From Gemmatimonadales bacterium (GTDB lineage Bacteria; Gemmatimonadota; Gemmatimonadetes; Longimicrobiales; Gaopeijiaceae), in assembly GCA_007692505.1 (NCBI GenBank), contig REBX01000131.1:1-54803 (forward strand): 54,803 nt of DNA. Reading direction: 5' to 3'. A model generated the notes under the pieces. The model worked only from the letters and a program-made list of their open reading frames with translations. It was not told the DNA's origin and did no database searches. Shown here piece after piece: positions 8,137 through 35,982 of this stretch (positions within the stretch are counted from its first letter, which is position 1; every line of letters starts with the position of its first letter). A program made the translations under genes and the position numbers.

Positions 8137-8325
8137 GTCGGGTCGGGTTCGGGACAACAGGCAGAAGGCCGGTCAACAGGCCGGGGCCTCGACCTCGAAG
8201 GCGGGGCCGAACAAAAATCCGGAACCCAATCTCGAAGACCCCGACCCTCCTGTCCACGACCCCCGACCCGCTCCCAGGTTCGGGTTGGAGTGGTCCGGGA
8301 AGGGCGGACACCCGGACACTTCGGC

Positions 8326-8388
8326 GGCCACCTGGACACCTTTTCTGGCCACCTGGACACCTTTGCTGGCCGTCTGGACACCCTGGCG
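8326..8388. repeat. 21-bp tandem direct repeat x3 (GGCCACCTGGACACCTTTkCT); the GGACAC core occurs five times from 8303
   Basis: Read directly: units at 8326-8346, 8347-8367 and 8368-8388. Two more GGACAC cores occur at 8306-8320. Confidence 0.85.
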
Positions 8389-8414
8389 GCCGCACTCCAG
8401 CGCCCCGAGCCGCT

Positions 8415-8450
8415 GGTGCAGTTCCATTCATTATCGGCCGCAAGTGCACC
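8415..8450 (+). repeat. degenerate third copy of the GTGCAG...TGCAC hairpin element
   Basis: GGTGCAgttccattcattatcggccgcaaGTGCACC has a 6-bp stem and an AT-rich loop. The loop resembles those of the 8856/8915 hairpins (TTCAnTA..GG). Confidence 0.45.
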
Positions 8451-8559
8451 CGCAGCGCGCATTGGGCCGACGCCCACCCCGCCCGCCCTGCGACGCCCCG
8501 CGCCCCGTCCGACTCACTCGCCCCGCGCCCTCTGCCAAGCTTTTTACCCCCACCAACGG

Positions 8560-8625
8560 TAGAATATACTAAAAACTAATAAGTCCGTCGGCAGGGCAGT
8601 ACGCTATACAAAATACTAATAAGTA
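8560..8625 (+). repeat. AT-rich twin box (ATAyAnnAAAAnCTAATAAG x2); homologous to 31605-31670
   Basis: tagaatatactaaaaactaataag (8560-8583) and ctatacaaaatactaataag (8604-8625) stand out in a ~70% GC background. They align with the two boxes at 31605-31670, which have the same spacing. Confidence 0.8.
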
Positions 8626-8688
8626 GAGGGCGGCTCTGCTGCCCGCCATCCATTATTCGGACCCGGGGGATGGCACAAAAGAGCGGGG

Positions 8689-8759
8689 CCCAGCCCGCCC
8701 CACGGCTACGAAGCGAAGCCCACGGGCCCAGCCCGCCCCACGGCTACGAAGCCCACGGG
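8689..8759. repeat. tandem duplication, 38 + 33 bp (CCCAGCCCGCCCCACGGCTACGAAGC[GAAGC]CCACGGG)
   Basis: Read directly. The second unit is identical to the first except for a 5-nt deletion. Confidence 0.85.
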
Positions 8760-8855
8760 CTCGGAAAGACCCACGACCCCGAAGCCCCCACCGGAAGCCC
8801 GAAGTCTCCGCCGGGATCCAGGGGTTCGGAAGTCCGCGCCCCGATCCCCTGCGCG

Positions 8856-8949
8856 TGCAGGGTTTCGTTCAATAATGGGCAAAACCCTGCAATGGCTCCG
8901 GCGCCGGCACCGCGTGCAGGGTTTTGTTCAATAGTGGGCAAAACCCGCA
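8856..8949 (+). repeat. twin hairpin element (two ~36-nt stem-loops 59 bp apart), copy A
   Basis: H1 (8856-8891) is TGCAGGGTTTcgttcaataatgggcaAAACCCTGCA, with a perfect 10-bp stem. H2 (8915-8949) is TGCAGGGTTTTgttcaatagtgggcAAAACCC-GCA. The same pair occurs at 31746-31840 in the same orientation and at 27251-27348 in reverse orientation. Confidence 0.9.
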
Positions 8950-8962
8950 CACACAGAGGTTC

Positions 8963-9106
8963 GGAAAACCGCAGAGGCGGGACGGGCTCCGGCGGAATGG
9001 AAAAACGTAGAGGCGAAACTGGCCCCAGGGGAACGGCTAACCGCAGAGGCCGGACTGGGCCCAGGGGAACGGAAAACCGCGGAGGCCGGACCGGGCCCGG
9101 CGGAGC
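8963..9106. repeat. 36-bp degenerate tandem repeat x4, exactly phased
   Basis: Units are 8963-8998, 8999-9034, 9035-9070 and 9071-9106. The consensus is GGAAAACCGCAGAGGCCGGACyGGGCCCrGGGGAAy. Confidence 0.85.
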
Positions 9107-9283
9107 GGGCCCCGCGATCCGGTGGCTCCGCAGCGCCGGTGGCGCTTCGCCGCACCAATGGGCTCCGCGACGGAGAGGATCCGCGACACAGAGGGGCTCC
9201 GCGAAGGAGCACGGCTGCCCAACGGAGCGAGAGCACGATACGGTGCGGTGCTGCCGACCGAGAGGAGCCGGAAAACACCGGGT

Positions 9284-9323
9284 GTTCGGGTTGTATTCGG
9301 ACAATGATTCGGCTTATGTTCGG
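9284..9323 (+). promoter_or_regulatory. two tandem 17-nt direct-repeat boxes (TTCGG-N6-TTCGG type); candidate SOS/LexA-like operator of imuB
   Basis: Box 1 is GTTCGGGTTGTATTCGG (9284-9300), 3 nt before ATG 9304. Box 2 is ATTCGGCTTATGTTCGG (9307-9323). Box 1 matches CTTCGGGTTATCTTCGG at 23520-23536, which has an identical 3-nt offset to the dnaE2 ATG. Confidence 0.55.
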
Positions 9324-10620
9324 TTTCCGCCTCCCGAGCCCTTCCCGAATCCCCGGATCGCCCGTCCGCATGTCCGCCTCCCGCACCTCCCTCTGCCTCC
9401 GGCTCCCCGCCTTCGAGCTCCGGCTGGAGCTCGTCCGTTCACCGGAACTGGACGCCACGTCGGTAGCGCTCCTGGCCCCCGGCGACGGCGGGGCCCGCCA
9501 GGAGATCGCCCAGGCGTCGGAGCGGGCCGGGCGGGCCGGGGTGCGACCGGGGATGACGGTCTCCCGGGCCGTGGCCCTCTGCCCGGGCCTCACTCTCCTG
9601 GAGCCCGACCCGGCCCACTACAACGCCGCCATGGAGGCCATCCTGGACCGCCTGTCCCGGGCCAGCCCGGTGGTGGAGTCCGTGGAGCGGGGCTGCGTCC
9701 ACGTGGGCGTGGACGGGCTGGACCGGCTCCTGGGCTCTCCCAGGGAGCAGGTGGACCGCATTCTGGAGCTCCTCTTCCAGGTCCTCCCCCGCCCCGTGGT
9801 GGCCGCCTTCCGGGCCGGGCGGGCACCAGGCACCTTCGCAGCGCAGGTCGCCAGCCGGGCCGCCCGCCCCGGCCTCCCCGTCCTGGTCAACGAGGCTGCA
9901 CTTACCGCCTTCCTGGCCCGGCAGCCCATGGAGACCCTCCCCCTCTCCCCCCGGGAGCTGGAGCGGCTCCACCGCCTGGACCTCCGCACCCTGGGCGACG
10001 TGGGCCGCCTCCCCGAAGCCGCCCTCCTGAGGCACCTGGGCCGGAAGGGTCGCACGATCCGGGCGCTGGCCCGGGGAGAGCAGGTCGACCCGGTGACCCC
10101 GGCGCACCGCCCCGAACCCATCCGCGTCCTCCTGGACCTTCCGGCCCCCACCCGGGAGGAGGGCCCCATGACCCGGGCCCTGGAGCGGATGATCGACCGG
10201 ATCCTGGCCCACGGGGACCGGCAGGACCGGAGCCTCCGGGCGCTCCGACTGGCCGCCACCCTGGAGGAGGGCGGCTCGTGGACGGCGGAGATCACCCTCC
10301 GGACCCCGTCGGCTCGCCGGGCGGACCTCCTCCGTCCCCTGGCCCACCGGGTGACCCTCCGGCCTCCCCCTCGGGCCGTGACCGCCCTGGAGCTGGAGGC
10401 CTTCGACTTCGGCCCCTCCTCCCTGCAGACCGGCCTGTTCGACCGGAGCGAGACGGGTGCCCGCCCCACCCATCCCGCCCCCGGATCCACCCTGGCCGAG
10501 GCAATTCGAGAACTCAAGCTCCGTCTGGGACACGCCCCCCTCTACCGGGTGGTGGAGCTGGAGCCCGACTCCCGGATCCCCGAACGACGCCATGCCCTCC
10601 TGGCCCTGGAGGAGGGGTGA
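9304..10620 (+). CDS. imuB: Y-family DNA polymerase, ImuB-like (mutasome subunit)
   Basis: SLCLRLPAFELRLEL resembles the ImuB N-terminus. ...GVRPGMTVSRAVALCPGLTLLEPDPAHYNAAMEAILDRL... shows Y-family palm/fingers-like blocks. I chose ATG 9304 because its motif-to-ATG geometry matches dnaE2. ATG 9370 is an alternative start. Confidence 0.75.
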   Translation: MIRLMFGFRLPSPSRIPGSPVRMSASRTSLCLRLPAFELRLELVRSPELDATSVALLAPGDGGARQEIAQASERAGRAGVRPGMTVSRAVALCPGLTLLEPDPAHYNAAMEAILDRLSRASPVVESVERGCVHVGVDGLDRLLGSPREQVDRILELLFQVLPRPVVAAFRAGRAPGTFAAQVASRAARPGLPVLVNEAALTAFLARQPMETLPLSPRELERLHRLDLRTLGDVGRLPEAALLRHLGRKGRTIRALARGEQVDPVTPAHRPEPIRVLLDLPAPTREEGPMTRALERMIDRILAHGDRQDRSLRALRLAATLEEGGSWTAEITLRTPSARRADLLRPLAHRVTLRPPPRAVTALELEAFDFGPSSLQTGLFDRSETGARPTHPAPGSTLAEAIRELKLRLGHAPLYRVVELEPDSRIPERRHALLALEEG

Positions 10621-10763: not shown

Positions 10764-10994
10764 GTGGTCGTGCAGACCGACGAGGGCGAGATCCCCGTGG
10801 CGGTGAAGGGCCGCCGCGGTCCGGTCCGCATCGAGGCGGTCCGGGAGACCTGGCAGATCGACGACGAGTGGTGGCGGGTGCCCATCTCCAGGGTCTACCA
10901 CTCCGTCGTCCTGGAGGGAGGCCGCCTGATCACCCTCTTCCGGGACCAAACCGCCAACCCGCCCCGCTGGTACTTCCAGCCCGGCGCCCGATGA
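10764..10994 (+). CDS. small conserved-looking Trp-rich protein downstream of imuB (76 aa; possibly the DUF6504-type family)
   Basis: GTG at 10764 is preceded by GGGAGGA 9 nt upstream. The sequence VVVQTDEGEIPVAVKGRRGPVRIEAVRETWQIDDEWWRVPISRVYHSVVLEGGRLITLFRDQTANPPRWYFQ has globular composition. The Pro/Gly/Arg-rich upstream part of ORF 8670..10994 does not. Confidence 0.6.
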   Translation: MVVQTDEGEIPVAVKGRRGPVRIEAVRETWQIDDEWWRVPISRVYHSVVLEGGRLITLFRDQTANPPRWYFQPGAR

Positions 10995-11230: not shown

Positions 11231-11566
11231 ATGACCATGGACCTGCTCTCGAGGCACTGCCAGCCCCTGGGCGAGGACGCCCTTCCCCTGGAGGGCGAGG
11301 CCCTCGACCACTACACCGAGGCGATCCCGGACCGATGGAAGGTGGTGGACGGCCACCACCTGGAGGGCACCTTCGAGTTCGAGAACTTCGTGGAGGCGCT
11401 GGAGTTCACCAACGCAGCCGGCGAGGTGGCCGAGGAAGAGAACCACCACCCCGAGATCACCGTCACCTGGGGCCGGGCCACCGTCCGGATCTGGACCCAC
11501 GACATCGACGGGCTCAGCGAGAACGACTTCATCCTGGCCGCCCGCATCGACGCCCGGGCCCGGTGA
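11231..11566 (+). CDS. 4a-hydroxytetrahydrobiopterin (pterin-4-alpha-carbinolamine) dehydratase
   Basis: W....dghhLegtFeFenFveAleFtnaaGevAEeenHHPeitvtWgratvriwTHdidGLsenDfilAaridA is the classic PCD/DCoH signature. A GGAG Shine-Dalgarno lies 8 nt upstream of the ATG. Confidence 0.9.
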   Translation: MTMDLLSRHCQPLGEDALPLEGEALDHYTEAIPDRWKVVDGHHLEGTFEFENFVEALEFTNAAGEVAEEENHHPEITVTWGRATVRIWTHDIDGLSENDFILAARIDARAR

Positions 11567-12057
11567 GCGGAGTCCGGGTCGGGATCGTCTCGGACACCCA
11601 CGGCCTCCTGCGGCCGGAGCTCTTCCACCTCCTGGAGGGGGTGGACCACATCCTCCACGCCGGCGACGTCGGGCGTCCCGACATCCTCACGGAGCTGGAG
11701 ACCCTGGCCCCGGTCACGGCGGTGCGGGGCAACACGGACGGCCTGGACATCCACGCCGTGGCCCCGGAGTCGGCCCGGACCGAACTCGCCGGTCGCACCG
11801 TGGTCGTGGTCCACGGCCACCTCACCGGGACCTCGCCGGCCGCCCTGGTGGACCACGCCCCCGACGCCGACGTCATCGTCTTCGGCCACACCCACCGGCC
11901 CGAGGTCCTGGAGCACCAGGGCGTCCTCCTGTTGAACCCCGGGAGCTGCGGGCCCCGGCGCTTCACCCAGCCCGTGTCCCTGGCCCTGGCCGACTTCGGG
12001 CCCGAGCCGGGCCCAGGCGGAATCCGGGTCCGACACCTGGAGATGGCCGACGACTGA
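11563..12057 (+). CDS. YfcE/MJ0936-family metallophosphoesterase
   Basis: A GTG start overlaps the upstream stop (GTGA). The motifs VGIVSDTHG, GDVG, GNTD, HGH and GHTH occur in canonical order. Confidence 0.85.
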   Translation: MSGVRVGIVSDTHGLLRPELFHLLEGVDHILHAGDVGRPDILTELETLAPVTAVRGNTDGLDIHAVAPESARTELAGRTVVVVHGHLTGTSPAALVDHAPDADVIVFGHTHRPEVLEHQGVLLLNPGSCGPRRFTQPVSLALADFGPEPGPGGIRVRHLEMADD

Positions 12058-12216
12058 CCCCAACTCGGGGCCTGCCGTGACCCCTCCGTGACCGGGCCGC
12101 TACCACCCCCTCTGCACGGAGCGGTAGATTCCCGCGTGACCGGACCCACCTTCCTCCCTTGCCCGCTCCTCCTGCGGGCCCGGGTCCAGTCCCACATCCG
12201 ATCCGGAGAGGGCTCC

Positions 12217-23505: not shown

Positions 23506-23536
23506 TTGAAGCCCCACGTCTTCGGGTTATCTTCGG
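23506..23536 (+). promoter_or_regulatory. candidate dnaE2 promoter (TTGAAG-16 nt-TATCTT) overlapped by the 17-nt direct-repeat box CTTCGGGTTATCTTCGG
   Basis: The -35 is at 23506-23511, the -10 at 23528-23533 and the box at 23520-23536. ATG 23540 lies 7 nt after the -10, which would make the transcript leaderless. The box matches 14 of the 17 positions of the imuB box. Confidence 0.5.
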
Positions 23537-23539
23537 TAC

Positions 23540-26500
23540 ATGTCCCCCTCCACGTCCCCTTCCACCTCTCCCGGCACCCCCCCGTACGTGGAGCTCCATG
23601 CCCACTCCGCCTACTCGTTCCTGGACGGGGCCTCCCACCCGGAGGAGCTCGTCCTCCGGGCCCGGGAGCTGGGGCAGCCGGCCCTGGCGCTGACGGACCA
23701 CGACGGGCTCTACGGGAGCATGGAGTTCGCCCGGGCCGCCCTGGAGGCGGAGCTCCACCCCATCACCGGCGTGGAGCTCACGGTGGCCCTCCCCCCGGTG
23801 GCCCTCTCCCCCGGCGGCCGAGGGGCAGCAGGGACCGTCGGGGACCCGGACCAGCCCCCGGAGCGACAGACGGCCCACATCACCCTCCTGGCCGAGTCGT
23901 CGGAGGGGTACGGCAACCTCTCGGAGCTGGTCACCGAGTCCCACCGGCGGGGGCCTCGGGGCGCCCCAGCCCTCCCCCTGGAGGAGGTGCTGGACCCGGC
24001 CCGGACCGAGGGTCTCGTCCTCCTCACCGGGTGCCGCGACGGCCCCCTCCACCATGCCGCCCGGCGTTCGGTGGCCCGGGCCGAGGAGGTGGCCCGGGAG
24101 ATGGTGGAGGCCTTCGGGCCCGGGCAGGTCTACGTGGAGCTCCAGGAGAACCGGGTCCGGGGCGATGCCCGGCGCACCCGGCTCCTGGGAGCGCTGGCGG
24201 ACCGGATGGACCTCCCGGTGGTGGCCACGGGGAACGTCCACTACCACCGGCCCGGGCTCCACCGGCTCCAGGACGTCCTCACCGCCATCCGCCACCGGAC
24301 CACGCTGGACGGCGCCCACGCCCACCGACGGCCCAATGCCTGCTTCCACCTGGCCCCTCCGGAAGAGATGGCCCGGCGGTTCTCCAGCCGCCCCGACGCC
24401 CTCCGCTCCACCCTGGAGATCGCGGACCGCTGCCGGGGCTTCCACCTGGCCCGGGACCTGGACTACGTCTTCCCCGACTTCCGGGGGAGCGACCGGGGGT
24501 CCGCCATGGAGGTGCTCTCGGCCCTGACGGGGGCACGGCTGGAGGAGCGGTACGGCCCCGAGGATCGGGACCGGGCCCGGGCGCGTCTGGACGAGGAGCT
24601 CCGGCTGGTGGAGCACCACGGCCTGGCGGGCTTCTTCCTGGTCTACCGGGACATCATGGAGCTGGCCCGCGAGGTGGCCCACCGGGTGCGCCGGGGGTCT
24701 GCCCGGAGCCGGGCCGGCCTCCCGCCGGGCCGGGGGCGGGGGTCGTCCGTGTCCTCCATCATCTGTTACCTCGTCGGGCTCTCCCACGTGGACCCGGTGG
24801 AGTCGAACCTCTTCCTGGGCCGGTTCCTTAACGACGCCATGGGCTCTGTCCCCGACATCGACCTGGACTTCCCCCGAGAGATCCGGGAGGAGCTCATCCT
24901 GGAGGTCCACCGGCGATGGGGTCCGGACCACACCGGCCTGGTGGCCACCTTCCCCACGTACCGGCTCCGCTCGGCGGTGCGGGAAGTGGGCAAGGTGCTG
25001 GAGATCGCCCCCGGCGACCTGGAGAAGATCGCCCGGCTGGCGGAGCACCGGTCCGCCGGCGGGCTCCGGGAGGACCTGGAGCACATGCCCGAGTTCGCGG
25101 ACCGGGCCGAAAGCCGCCCCTGGCAGCACTTCCTGGAGCGGGTGGACGAGATCGCCGGGCTCCCCCGCCACATCTCCCAGCACGTGGGGGGGATGGTGAT
25201 CTCGAGCCGGCCCCTCCACCGCCTGGTCCCCCTGGAGCCCGCCGCCATGGAGGGCCGGACCCTCTGCCAGTGGGACAAGGACTCCTGCTCCGATGCGGGC
25301 TTCATCAAGATCGACTTCCTGGCCCTGGGCATGCTCTCCCTGGTGGAGGAGGCCGTGGACCTCATCGATGCCCGCCGACCCGCCGGGGAGGAGGCCCTGG
25401 ACCTCTCCCGCATCGACCTGGAGGACGAGGCGGTCCACGACCGCATCGCGGCAGGGGACACGGTGGGGATCTTCCAGGTGGAGAGCCGGGCCCAGATCCA
25501 GATGATCCGGAGGACCCGGCCCCGGACCCTCCCGGACCTGGCCATCCAGGTGGCGCTGGTCCGGCCGGGCCCCATCGTGGGCGGCGCGGTGAACCCCTAC
25601 GTCCGACGCCGGGAGGCACTCCGGAAGGACCCGACGTACCGGCCCCCGGTGGACCACCCCCTCCTGGAGGAGCCCCTGGCCGAGACCCTGGGGATCATCG
25701 TCTTCCAGGACCAGGTCCTCCAGGTCTGCCGGGCGCTGGCGGGGTTCACCGACGGCCAGGCGGAGAGCCTCCGGCGGGCCATGAGCCGGAAGCGGTCCGG
25801 CGAGGCCATGCGGGCCCACCGGGACGCCTTCCTGGAGGGCGCCCGGGCCCGGGGCGTCGACGAGGAGACGGCAAACCGGATCTTCCAGCAGGTGGTGGGC
25901 TTCTCCGAGTTCGGCTTCCCCAAGTCCCACGCGGCGGCCTTCGCGCTGCTGGCCTACCAGTCCGCCTGGCTCCGGCACCACTTCCCCACCGAGTACTACG
26001 TGGCCCTCTTCAACAACCAGCCCATGGGCTTCTACTCGCTGGACGCCCTGGGCCGCGATGCGGGCCGAAACGGGATCCGGATCCTCCCGCCCCACCTGGA
26101 ACACAGCCGGGTTCGCTGCACCCCCGAGGGCGACGACCTGAGGGTGGGGCTCGCTTTCGTCCGGGGGTGGGGCGAGGAGGTGGCCCGGCAGGTCGTGGCG
26201 GAGCGGGAGGCCCGGGGCCCCTTCCGGAGCCTGTCGGACTTCCTGGCCCGAACCCCCTCGGCCCTCCGGCGCCCGGCGGTGGAGAACCTGGTGTGGGTGG
26301 GCGGGCTGGACCACCTGGGGTTGGGGCGCCGCGAACTCCTCTGGCAGGCCGGGCTCTGGCTGGGCCCCGACGAGGAGCGGGGCCGGGGGCGGGGGCGGGC
26401 CGACGACCCCCAGCTCGCCCTGGGGCTCGGCGACCTGGAGGACCGGGCCACCCGGTTTCGCCCGGTGGACGACCGGGACGAGCTCGTGGCCGAGTACCGG

Positions 26501-27091
26501 ATGCTCCGCTTCTCCACCGCTACCCATCCCCTGGCCCTGGTGCGTGAGGAGCTCCCCCCCGGCCTGAGGACCTCCCGGGAACTCCCCGACACCCGGAACG
26601 GCACCCCGGTGACCCTGGCCGGCCTGGTGGTGGCCCGGCAGCGACCCCACACGGCCCGGGGCTACATCTTCATCCTGGTGGAGGACGAGCACGGCCACGT
26701 GAACGTCATCGTCCGACCGGAGGTCTACCGGGCCTGCCGGAACGCCGTGCGGCTGGAGCCCTTCCTGGAGGTGGAGGGGCGGCTCCAGAAGGACGGCGAC
26801 AGCATCAACGTCATCGCCACCGGGCTCCGGGCCCTCCGGACGGGACGGGGCACGGCGGCCTCCGGCAGCCTGCCCGACCCCATGCAGTACTGGCCCGACC
26901 CCAGGCGGGGTGGCGCCGGGGGGTCACCGGCCGGGCAAGGCGAGGCGGAGCAGGGCGAGGCGGTGGAGCGGGACGACGGGCCGGGCGATGGCGGGCGGCG
27001 CGCACCCAACGGCCCGCCGGCCAATGCCGACACTTGGCGCTTCCTCCGCACCCTGCGAGAGAGCCCCCCCGGCACGAAGAGCTGGGGGTGA
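23540..27091 (+). CDS. dnaE2: error-prone DNA polymerase III alpha subunit DnaE2 (ImuC)
   Basis: The PHP domain start is [44 protein letters not shown]. The polIII alpha core blocks [18 protein letters not shown] and FQVESRAQ are present. There is an OB-fold region but no tau/beta-binding C-terminal tail. Length is 1183 aa. Confidence 0.92.
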   Translation: [1183 protein letters not shown]

Positions 27092-33326: not shown

Positions 33327-35684
33327 TCAGCGGCCGGGTCGGAGGGCCAGGCGAACCCCGAAGGTCCGGCCCGGCAGGGGGTAGTCCACCAGGAGGGAGG
33401 CGGTCTGGTCCAGGAGGTTCTCCACCGACAGGTCGAGCTGCAGGTGGACGCGGCCCAGGGGGTCCGACTCCAGCGTGCGGCTGGAGGAGAGGCCTGCGCT
33501 CCAGCGGGTGTGGGCGTCCAGGCGGTTCACGTCGGAGCCGGCCTGCGAGCGCCGGCTCCCGATGCGGCGGACCCGGGTGTCCAGGTCCACGGGGCCCATG
33601 CGGAGGCGGGCGTCCACGGTGCCGGTGTGGAGGGGGCGGTACGCGACCTGCCCCGAGAGGGCCCGCCCCGTGTACTCCACCCCCTGCCGGTCCAGGCGAC
33701 CCCGCATGCGGAGCCGACCGCTCGGCGTCTCCAGGGCCAGGGAGGCAGATGCGCCCTCCCGCCGGACGTCGAAGTTCTCCGGCCGCCAGACGAAGCGGTG
33801 GTCCGGGAGCCAGAGGATCATCCCGTCCACGTCGGCCCGCCAGGCCGCGAGTTCGGCGGTGAGGAGGAGCCCGGCGAGCCCCTGCTCGTGGCCCAGACCC
33901 GCCTCCACCTCGCCCCGCACCCGCTCGGGCTCCAGGGTGGGGTTCGAGCGGGCCAGGACGCCCTCCTGGAAGTAGAGGTCCGAGAGGGAGGGAGCAGAGA
34001 ACGCCCGACCGGTGCGGAGCCAGCCCCGGGTCCCGCCGGCCACCAGCTCCAGCTGCGCCGCCGGAGAGACGGCGACCCCGCTCACCAGGTCGTGGCGGTC
34101 CAGCCGTCCGCCCAGGATCCAGCGGAGCTCACCCCGCCCCCCGGGCCCGGCCCGTCGGCCCTCCAGATCGGACCAGAGGGCGAGCTCGCCGATGGCATCG
34201 GGCGCGTTTGGGCCCAGGCCATCGGCCCGGATCCGGCTGGAGGCCAGCTGCACGCCGGCGGCCAACTCCATCCGCCCCAGAAGAGCGGAGGAGCCCATCT
34301 CCGGGAGGCGAAGGGACGTCTCGGCGTCGGCCCCCAGCCGGAGGACCCGGCTCCGGTCCGCGTAGGCCGGACCCAGGGGAGGGTCGGGGTCCGCAAAGCG
34401 GCCCTCGTGGGCCTCGGCGGCGCCGCCCAGGGCCCAGCCCAGGAGGTGGGCTCCCCCGTCTCCGGTCCACCGGGCCCGCAGCCCCAGCCGCTCCTGCACC
34501 TGGGTCCCGGTGGCCGAGGGCTGGACGATGGTGCCCGGGGTCCCCCGCTCCACCCTCTGGCCATGAGCCCGGATGCGGGCCTCCGTGGTCCGGCCGTCCC
34601 GGACGAGTTCGGTCTCGCCCCGGATCCGGCTGACCCCGGCGTTGCCGCGGACCGCCGTGCCTCCCCCCCGGACGTCGGGCCGGTCGTAGCGGAAATTCCC
34701 TTCCGCCTGCATCCACTCGCCCCCGACCCCCAGGCGCCAGGGGCCCGGGAGGCCGGGAATGGAGCCGGATTCCAGCTGGACGGACTCCTCTCCCAGCGAG
34801 CCCGCGGCCACGTTCGCCCGCCAGTCCCGGGCCCCGGCACTCCGGGTGGTGATGAGGATCGTGCCGGCGAGGGCGCCGCTCCCGTGGCGGCTGGACCCGG
34901 CGCCGGGGATTACGACCACGTCCTCCACAGAGGCCAGGTCCACCTGGGAGAGGTCGGCCTCCCCGGTAAGGGCAGAGTTGAGGGGGACCCCGTCCACCAG
35001 GACCAGGACCTGGTCCCCGGCGGAGCCCCGGATGGAGGGAACGGAAGGTGCACCGGGGCCGCCCCGGCGCTCCACCAGGACCCCGGGGGCCTCCTCCAGG
35101 AGGTCGGCCAGGGTACGCACGGAGGCCCCGGCCTCCGCAGGCCGGAGTCGGATGGAGCCCGCCGTGGGAAGGGCCTCGGTCTCGGGAGCGGCCCGGACCT
35201 GCAGGCCGGCCAGCACCACGGGATCGGGGTGGAGGCGGATGTCGATGCGGGTGCGGGAGCCGTTCTCCACCACGGCCTCGCTACGCAGGGGAAGCCAGCC
35301 GGTCCCCGACGCCCGGAGCTGGACCCGACCGGGCTCCAGCCCCCGGAAGCGGGCCACCCCGGAGGCATCGGTGCGCCCCGTGTCCCCCGATCCTTCCACC
35401 GTCACAAGGACCCCGGCCACCGGGCGTCCGTCGGAGGCATCCAGGACCCGAACCTCCAGGGTGGCCGGGACCTGGGCCTGGGCCCGGGAGGACGCCCCCG
35501 GGACGGCAGGGAGCTGGGTCCACGCAGGGAGGACGGGGCAGGCCAGCAGGATGGCCAGGAGGAAGGCGCCGGCGGAGGGCAGGCAACGGGCGCCCCGAAA
35601 GGAGGCCCGGCCGGATCGGGCAGGTACCGGCGAACGGAAGACGACGGGCAGGCGCGGGGGCCTGCTCCGGCGTCCGGGAGCCAT
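33327..35684 (-). CDS. btuB: TonB-dependent receptor, probable corrinoid/cobalamin outer-membrane transporter
   Basis: ATG at 35684 gives MAPGRRS. A CarbopepD_reg-like domain (LEVRVLDASDGRPVAGVLVTVEG) is followed by a plug (VRTLADLLEEAPGVLVERRGGPGAPSVPSIRGSAGDQVLVLVDGVPLN). The protein ends in a terminal beta-strand, FGVRLALRPGR. The btuB assignment rests on the upstream cobalamin riboswitch. Confidence 0.75.
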   Translation of the reverse strand: MAPGRRSRPPRLPVVFRSPVPARSGRASFRGARCLPSAGAFLLAILLACPVLPAWTQLPAVPGASSRAQAQVPATLEVRVLDASDGRPVAGVLVTVEGSGDTGRTDASGVARFRGLEPGRVQLRASGTGWLPLRSEAVVENGSRTRIDIRLHPDPVVLAGLQVRAAPETEALPTAGSIRLRPAEAGASVRTLADLLEEAPGVLVERRGGPGAPSVPSIRGSAGDQVLVLVDGVPLNSALTGEADLSQVDLASVEDVVVIPGAGSSRHGSGALAGTILITTRSAGARDWRANVAAGSLGEESVQLESGSIPGLPGPWRLGVGGEWMQAEGNFRYDRPDVRGGGTAVRGNAGVSRIRGETELVRDGRTTEARIRAHGQRVERGTPGTIVQPSATGTQVQERLGLRARWTGDGGAHLLGWALGGAAEAHEGRFADPDPPLGPAYADRSRVLRLGADAETSLRLPEMGSSALLGRMELAAGVQLASSRIRADGLGPNAPDAIGELALWSDLEGRRAGPGGRGELRWILGGRLDRHDLVSGVAVSPAAQLELVAGGTRGWLRTGRAFSAPSLSDLYFQEGVLARSNPTLEPERVRGEVEAGLGHEQGLAGLLLTAELAAWRADVDGMILWLPDHRFVWRPENFDVRREGASASLALETPSGRLRMRGRLDRQGVEYTGRALSGQVAYRPLHTGTVDARLRMGPVDLDTRVRRIGSRRSQAGSDVNRLDAHTRWSAGLSSSRTLESDPLGRVHLQLDLSVENLLDQTASLLVDYPLPGRTFGVRLALRPGR

Positions 35685-35747
35685 GGAGGCTCGCGGAGTC
35701 AGGAGTCCCAAGTGTCCCCTCCCTCGAGGGTGTCCGGGTGCTGGAGG

Positions 35748-35930
35748 GACGAGGAGGAGGTCTCCTGGCTCGAGGCAGTCACACTCGCCTTCCCGGAGCC
35801 CGCAGGCTCCAGTGGCATTCCTTCGAGTGGACCATCCGGAACGGCTCTCCCGGGGGAGGGCCATTCCGCACCTCTGACAGTGGCGGGGCCGCGCCGGATT
35901 CTCACCGGACTTCCGTGTTCCGCCTCGTCG
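35748..35930 (-). ncRNA. cobalamin (B12) riboswitch
   Basis: The minus strand reads GACGAGGcggaacacGGAAgtccGGTGagAAtCCggcGCgGcCCCGCCACTGTcag ... GCCACTGgagcctgcgggctccGGGAAGGCgag ... gAGCCAGGAGACCTcctCCTCGTC. This contains the conserved core, the GCCACTG...GGGAAGGC element, the B12 box and a closing P1 (GACGAGG/CCTCGTC). Confidence 0.9.
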
Positions 35931-35956
35931 CTTGTTTGTGCCTGAACGGTTAGGCA

Positions 35957-35982
35957 CCGGGGCCGAGCGGCGCAAGCCCCGG
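35957..35982 (-). terminator. GC hairpin after the DUF1232 gene (candidate terminator)
   Basis: CCGGGGC-cgagcggcgcaa-GCCCCGG forms a 7-bp stem. No U-tract is present. Confidence 0.35.

Follow-up and report, generated by a model that had tools for sequence, protein, structure and literature searches.

The genes imuB and dnaE2 of a Gemmatimonadales bacterium, located 14 kb apart on one contig, are preceded by the same direct-repeat box, TTCGG-N6-TTCGG, and there are good grounds to regard such boxes as probable operators of a LexA-type SOS repressor in Gemmatimonadota. The stretch of DNA analysed, called here the window, is the complete contig of 54,803 nucleotides with a G+C content of 71.5%, and near-identical DNA is present in soda-lake metagenomes. 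The window holds three copies of the box, and this observation is confirmed as real and far beyond chance.

The imuB gene, which encodes an inactive Y-family polymerase homologue, occupies positions 9370..10620 of the plus strand (Pfam IMS, E = 5e-14). ImuB homologues number 889, the best of them 60-67% identical, and the named ones are ImuB proteins or belong to Gemmatimonadota, Gemmatimonadetes or Longimicrobiales MAGs. The dnaE2 gene, encoding an error-prone DNA polymerase III alpha paralogue with the Pfam domains PHP, DNA_pol3_alpha, finger, HHH_6 and OB, is located at 23540..27091 (+). Direct read-out of the sequence gives GTTCGGGTTGTATTCGG-aca-ATG at 9284-9306 and CTTCGGGTTATCTTCGG-tac-ATG at 23520-23542, the two boxes being identical at 14 of 17 positions and both standing 3 nt from an ATG, while a second imuB copy, ATTCGGCTTATGTTCGG, is found at 9307-9323, its start 23 nt from that of the first. 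On these points, as also on the TTGAAG hexamer placed 16 nt upstream of a box-internal TATCTT at dnaE2, the sequence-only reading from which this work started was accurate. Taken as 16-mers, the boxes are TTCGGGTTGTATTCGG (imuB box 1, 9285..9300, +), which overlaps a -35-like TTGTAT at 9291-9296; TTCGGCTTATGTTCGG (imuB box 2, 9308..9323, +), with a -10-like TATGTT at 9315-9320 inside it; and TTCGGGTTATCTTCGG (the dnaE2 box, 23521..23536, +), which contains the -10-like TATCTT at 23528-23533 and has the -35-like TTGAAG at 23506..23511 (+) upstream.

The pattern TTCGGNTTRTNTTCGG, with one mismatch at most, has only three matches in the window (9285-9300, 9308-9323 and 23521-23536) and was matched in none of 100 dinucleotide-preserving shuffles of the window. 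Because this pattern had been derived from the three window sites themselves, the test was repeated with a weight matrix built of 157 sites from other genomes, which is independent of the window boxes. The scores were 17.1 bits for imuB box 1, the weaker copy, 30.4 bits for imuB box 2 and 27.9 bits for the dnaE2 box, and no further position of the 54.8 kb reached 12 bits on either strand. A box at the position equivalent to imuB box 1 is present upstream of imuB in the relatives L003 and L011.

The footprint of the box across the phylum was followed in the imuB loci of 80 species genomes, nearly all titled as Gemmatimonadota lineages; these were obtained by a genome scan with an ImuB alignment as the query, a single ImuB protein having given no matches. 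In 79 of the 80 loci imuB is closely preceded by a box on its coding strand, the remaining locus having no upstream sequence, and most loci have the boxes in pairs, 17-25 nt apart from start to start. The matrix consists of two near-invariant TTCGG pentamers whose starts are 11 bp apart, each usually followed by T, with a T-rich spacer (n-n-T-W-T-n), so that the consensus can be written as TTCGGTTTWTnTTCGGT. All four independent dnaE2 promoters seen (the window, L040, L386 and L363) are likewise preceded by a box. In the window and in L386, a Gemmatimonadota-type contig whose DnaE2 is 63% identical, the order is box, 3 nt and ATG; in L040 the box is followed by an inverted second box and then by a leader of about 45 nt, and in L363 the leader is longer. 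In L037 dnaE2 stands after imuB, presumably in the same operon, and has no box of its own. Conservation in orthologous promoters, a test named in advance by the sequence-only reading, is thereby seen at 79 of 80 imuB loci and four dnaE2 promoters. Outside imuB, in about 600 kb of imuB-flanking Gemmatimonadota DNA, the only strong sites are the pair of boxes that immediately precedes dnaE2 in L040. UDG-family genes in the window and in three loci have no box, which speaks against an SOS operator.

Some details of these promoters may be added. In the Gemmatimonadales dnaE2 promoter of L040 (9223-9269) one box lies over the -10 and the second, inverted, 12 nt downstream, a layout which indicates that the TTCGG box would function in either orientation. 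In imuB loci with a long leader (about 250-300 nt) or an N-terminal extension, a further element, TCCCCGG-N3-5-CCGAC, is conserved 20-60 nt after the second box (L024, L034, L048, L057, L064, L070, L071, L074-L076, L078 and L080), and this element may be a structure of the leader RNA or a piece of a lengthened coding region.

The position of the boxes with respect to the core promoter is regular. In 54 loci a TAnnnT is found at positions 8-13 of one box, and in 49 of these 54 a TTG stands 16-18 nt upstream of it, the spacing being 17 nt in 35 loci, while shifted controls (4-12 nt) gave such a placement in 0-2 loci. It follows that one box carries a -10 hexamer belonging to a promoter of sigma-70 type, the other box lying over the -35 or the start-site region, which is the geometry of a repressor. 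The predicted imuB promoter is composed of TTGTAT in box 1 and TATGTT in box 2, separated by an 18-nt spacer, with transcription starting at about 9327. At dnaE2 the predicted start is the A of the ATG at 23540; as this A is located only 7 nt after TATCTT, the dnaE2 mRNA is probably leaderless. The window promoters, with 8 of 12 consensus matches, are not picked up by a strict sigma-70 consensus scan; it is the comparison between loci that speaks for them. In the public metatranscriptomes of the same soda-lake study no reads fall on imuB or dnaE2, which is compatible with repression and proves nothing.

The box had been taken earlier as an argument that imuB starts at 9304, and this is not borne out. 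It is true that the automated call (P0001) begins with the ATG at 9304 and gives a protein of 438 aa, of which box 2 forms codons 2-7. The closest ImuB homologues begin with M-x-x-SRT-x-LC, corresponding to M23 and the ATG at 9370; the extension of 22 residues from 9304 is not conserved, and the extensions of other homologues are mutually unrelated. Even L003 and L011, which are the nearest relatives, lack the ATG in front of box 2; in other loci the box stands in different frames, and the predicted transcription start of imuB lies downstream of 9304. The peptide IRLMFGF is box 2 in translation, and the protein likeness reported there by tblastn is that of the conserved DNA box. The most likely imuB start, on this comparison, is the ATG at 9370, and the distance of 3 nt between box and ATG is a coincidence at imuB and a real feature at dnaE2, where it is repeated in L386.

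The window and the 80 Gemmatimonadota imuB loci yielded neither imuA nor an imuA'/RecA-like gene, and recA, uvrA and ssb are absent from the window. Directly downstream of imuB there is an open reading frame of 76 codons (10764..10994, +; GTG at 10764, with GGGAGGA 10 nt upstream) whose product carries the motif RE-WRIDDEWWR-PISR-Y and has no Pfam match. It is found by tblastn at the equivalent place in about 75 of the 80 loci (L001-L080) and is probably part of the imuB operon. Since the Gemmatimonadota loci have no imuA, the 76-aa WRIDDEWWR protein could be a lineage-specific mutasome subunit; it could also be a split-off C-terminal module of ImuB.

As for regulators encoded nearby, a gene of WYL/WCX/HTH_PafC type (PafC-like) lies right at the beginning of the contig (27-1016, +), and its product is a possible DNA-damage regulator. 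A WYL gene is located near imuB in 2 of 81 loci, namely the window and L023, and a TetR-family gene in 15 of 80. Both were set aside as regulators of the boxes because they are not conserved beside imuB.

Several other features of the window are recorded here for completeness. The 1.1 kb upstream of imuB (8172-9284) contain no convincing gene and are occupied by tandem arrays at 8326-8382 (21-nt unit), 8686-8787, 8962-9108 (four copies of a 36-nt unit) and 9160-9205, by an AT-rich island at about 8555-8625 with the direct repeat ATAC(T/A)AAA(A)(C/T)ACTAATAAGT, and by two copies, at about 8855-8891 and 8914-8949, of a hairpin element of about 36 nt, GTGCAGGGTTTYGTTCAATARTGGGCAAAACCC. A pterin-4a-carbinolamine dehydratase gene (Pfam Pterin_4a) is located at about 11290-11566 (+), and the minus-strand open reading frame 11311-12063 was rejected as its antisense shadow, despite apparent conservation. 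A cobalamin riboswitch (Rfam RF00174, 58.8 bits) lies at 35738-35943 (-) upstream of a TonB-dependent receptor gene, from which it follows that the open reading frame called at 33327-35975 starts too early.

Evidence as to what binds the box comes from other lineages. A metagenome scan with the consensus-like box TTCGGYTTWTNTTCGGT gave at least 119 loci, many low-GC matches being chance occurrences inside genes. In at least eight low- or mid-GC contigs a LexA of about 200 aa is encoded directly downstream of the box, which fills the spacer between -35 and -10 exactly, as in the lexA promoter of L343 (TTGACA-cg-TTCGGTTTATGTTCGG-TATAAT), and in at least two contigs of this kind the box is followed by a small open reading frame and then by lexA. 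One LexA derived from the scan was checked and has the domains LexA_DNA_bind and Peptidase_S24, its named relatives being from Patescibacteria or Berkelbacteria. In several high-GC contigs the box stands upstream of Gemmatimonadota-type imuB and dnaE2 and of genes for ImuA-like (RecA-fold), SplB-like radical-SAM and UvrD-like helicase proteins, and it is found before rarA too, in Patescibacteria or other high-GC contigs of the same scan. SplB, UvrD and imuA-imuB-dnaE2 are listed as members of the SOS regulon (PMC8565304). The Gemmatimonadota-type matches, about 6-7 among the matches listed, are all at imuB or dnaE2 and none at lexA; this counts against LexA, although the pattern was a restrictive one.

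An exhaustive profile search together with a filter for GC-rich composition led to a GC-rich LexA clade with the recognition helix SSVATVAEH, a helix it shares with the box-linked LexA, and whose named members are Geothermincolia, Anoxymicrobiaceae or Actinomycetota. In the Geothermincolia-like clade lexA heads an operon lexA-dinB-dnaE2, and TTCGGTTTTTGTTCGG, scoring 31.1 bits, is located between the -35 and the -10 of its promoter. L438, of an unplaced lineage with 60% GC and the same helix, likewise has the box in the lexA promoter and a second one before the next gene. Where the LexA has another helix (ATVHKH or ATVHQH), the corresponding place of the promoter holds a repeat akin to the box but not identical with it, namely TTCGC-N6-TTTGC in L435 (Acidobacteriota), TTCGC-N6-TTCGC in L437 and TTCGG-N7-TTCGG in L436. 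TTCGG-N6-TTCGG is thus linked with the autoregulation of lexA in several lineages, and with genes typical of the SOS response.

Among the Patescibacteria-type contigs, L337, where 24 nt separate the box from the open reading frame, and L355, with its second box at 1896, have the box before a conserved protein of 82-88 aa which has no Pfam match and is a candidate small SOS gene product of this group. The matches in viral contigs (L187-L302) were judged irrelevant, most of them being trivial tandem repeats of 11 bp with TTCGG in the unit. Arrays of this 11-bp type, with box-like 16-mers about 26-27 nt apart, occur in the phage contigs L256/L261, L272, L297, L271/L280, L236/L281 and many others. 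In L256, the one viral contig checked, the array lies just upstream of a terminase-like gene, identified from its translation, and is probably a set of packaging-site repeats rather than LexA sites.

A Gemmatimonadota LexA was looked for by several routes. Searches by tblastn with the LexA proteins of E. coli and Patescibacteria found none in the window or the 80 Gemmatimonadota loci, a plasmid collection yielded none, and the literature searched contained no description of a Gemmatimonadota LexA or SOS motif. The GC-rich SSVATVAEH clade, considered for this role, turned out to be Actinomycetota, and other GC-rich LexA loci belong to Acidobacteriota or have no placement. The sole LexA labelled Longimicrobiales (L434, JAUYCO010000151.1) is probably on a contig of 1.1 kb mis-binned into a Gemmatimonadota MAG, because the polymerase gene beside its lexA fragment shares 90% identity with the Actinomycetota-type cassette of L429 and 29% with the window ImuB. 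The proposal that the boxes are SOS operators, made already in the sequence-only reading, is borne out as regards a conserved operator-like repeat lying over the -10; the box is found as well in lexA promoters, those of other phyla, and upstream of further SOS genes. Owing to the presence of the box in these lexA promoters and upstream of SOS genes, LexA is the best candidate for the protein that binds the box in Gemmatimonadota.

The mechanism which may be proposed is as follows. A LexA dimer, its winged-helix domains arranged head to tail, would bind the two TTCGGT half-sites on one face of the helix. At imuB there would be two such sites, one over the -35 and one with the -10, and at dnaE2 a single site with the -10 that ends 3 nt before the ATG, and the bound repressor would exclude RNA polymerase from both promoters. 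The paired boxes of imuB may allow a tighter, possibly cooperative repression. After DNA damage the self-cleavage of LexA, stimulated by RecA, would release the two unlinked promoters together, and ImuB, the co-transcribed small protein and DnaE2 would then carry out mutagenic translesion synthesis. Of this scheme the anatomy of the sites and the comparative association are observed; repression and the induction of imuB and dnaE2 by damage would follow from established SOS biology, and a leaderless dnaE2 from the layout of its promoter. In Alphaproteobacteria, Acidobacteria, Patescibacteria and Balneolaeota LexA is on record as binding direct repeats (PMC8565304; PMC7739468), and imuB and dnaE2 are typically regulated by LexA (PMC3919608).

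Other explanations of the boxes have to be weighed against this. It is scarcely credible that the three boxes are a chance likeness or merely the translated N-terminus of ImuB, as the gene call that places box 2 within the protein would have it, for the shuffled sequences gave no matches, the DNA is kept in 79 of 80 genomes while the ATG and the reading frame are not, and unrelated genes are preceded by the same box. The box could instead belong to the promoter itself, whether as an extended -10 or a spacer signature peculiar to the lineage, as a site recognised by an alternative sigma factor, or as that of an OmpR/PhoB-like response regulator which activates from direct repeats. The constant supply of the -10 hexamer by one of the boxes speaks for this, as does the 11-bp direct repeat, which is a hallmark of OmpR/PhoB-type activator sites. 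Nevertheless, the position of the 16-mer relative to the core promoter varies, since it lies over the -10 at imuB and dnaE2, in the spacer between -35 and -10 at lexA, over the start site in the case of the second imuB box, and inverted after the promoter in L040. Sites over the -10 and the start suit repression and not activation, and the box is absent from all other promoters of the window, so that a role as a promoter element is regarded as very improbable.

The main rival to a global LexA operator is a dedicated regulator of the mutasome, either a second, cassette-specific LexA, as in lexA2-imuA-imuB-dnaE2, or a non-LexA repressor, for which the box would be the operator without serving the SOS response at large. 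It agrees with the restriction of the box to imuB and dnaE2, both in the 600 kb or so sampled from the phylum and among the listed metagenome matches of Gemmatimonadota type, although the DNA sampled is the neighbourhood of imuB and the absence of other targets from it is weak evidence. The boxed lexA of the Geothermincolia-like clade heads a lexA-dinB-dnaE2 cassette, a unit which could move together with its own operator; elsewhere, in Patescibacteria and high-GC contigs, the box serves splB-like and uvrD-like genes, rarA and lexA alone. The TetR genes near some imuB loci and the WYL/PafC-like genes of the window and L023 would provide non-LexA candidates, but most imuB loci have neither, and TetR proteins as a rule bind palindromic sites. 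Altogether this explanation is considered unlikely, and a LexA-type SOS operator is still preferred. A broader and rather doubtful conjecture is that the box and the SSVATVAEH-type LexA form one module common to Patescibacteria, basal Actinomycetota (Geothermincolia) and Gemmatimonadota. Such a module would be a self-regulated lexA-polymerase cassette in Actinomycetota, and it may have arrived laterally in Gemmatimonadota, where it may act as the dedicated switch of an ImuA-less mutasome with the 76-aa WRIDDEWWR protein as its third subunit.

Gemmatimonadota are a phylum widespread in soil and sediment in which almost no genetics has been done. With a precise operator and a matrix of 157 sites the prediction of a DNA-damage regulon becomes possible in this group, and a start codon is corrected at which the automated annotation translates an operator. 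A single direct-repeat LexA motif common to Patescibacteria, a basal clade of Actinomycetota and, by inference, Gemmatimonadota bears on the evolution and spread of LexA specificity. The control of imuB and dnaE2 by a LexA-type operator is in itself the expected arrangement and no new kind of system; that three very distant lineages have the same direct-repeat motif is a mild surprise.

Among the known systems the nearest is the LexA box of Patescibacteria (Sanchez-Osuna, Barbe and Erill 2017, Environ Microbiol 19:3465), cited in PMC7739468 as a direct-repeat case. The lexA promoters of Patescibacteria seen here, in at least ten lexA loci (one LexA of which was searched for relatives), have the same half-site, the 11-bp period and the T-rich spacer, and judging from them the consensus of 2017 would be the TTCGG-N6-TTCGG motif. 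The placement differs, since the Patescibacteria box occupies the -35/-10 spacer of lexA, whereas in Gemmatimonadota, with 71% GC, it lies over the -10 of imuB and dnaE2. The likeness, suggested earlier, to the alphaproteobacterial LexA box GTTC-N7-GTTC (PMC8565304), itself the site of a LexA dimer, holds for the direct repeat and for the TTC triplets, 11 bp apart in both, but not for the G on their 5' side. In the Gemmatimonadota box this place is unconserved, with 0.28 and 0.11 bits (T/C/A/G = 75/48/22/12 at matrix position 0, and about equal A, C and G at position 11), and for this reason the box is not a member of the GTTC-N7-GTTC motif family; unlike that motif, it has a nearly invariant GG(T) on the 3' side of TTC.

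For Acidobacteriota, the LexA box of Acidobacterium capsulatum (Mazon 2006) is cited by title in PMC7739468. The LexA of this phylum has the helix ATVHKH, in contrast to SSVATVAEH of the TTCGG-linked LexA, and the repeat of L435 takes the same spacer position. The A. capsulatum consensus from that 2006 work is reportedly GTTC-N7-GTTC. In mycobacteria the WYL-domain regulator PafBC activates the response to DNA damage through the RecA-NDp promoter motif, which is different in sequence. A damage-response motif at the -10, leaderless transcripts and the PafC-like gene of the window recall this system, yet PafBC is an activator with an unrelated motif, and the WYL gene is 8 kb from imuB and present in 2 of 81 loci. 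The LexA-regulated imuA-imuB-dnaE2 cassette (Abella 2004 and Erill 2006, as referred to in PMC3919608) is comparable in that imuB and dnaE2 share an operator, and the genes are split as in some other lineages. What distinguishes the Gemmatimonadota arrangement from this cassette is the lack of imuA, the 76-aa open reading frame after imuB, and separate operator-bearing promoters for imuB and dnaE2 at a distance of 14 kb.
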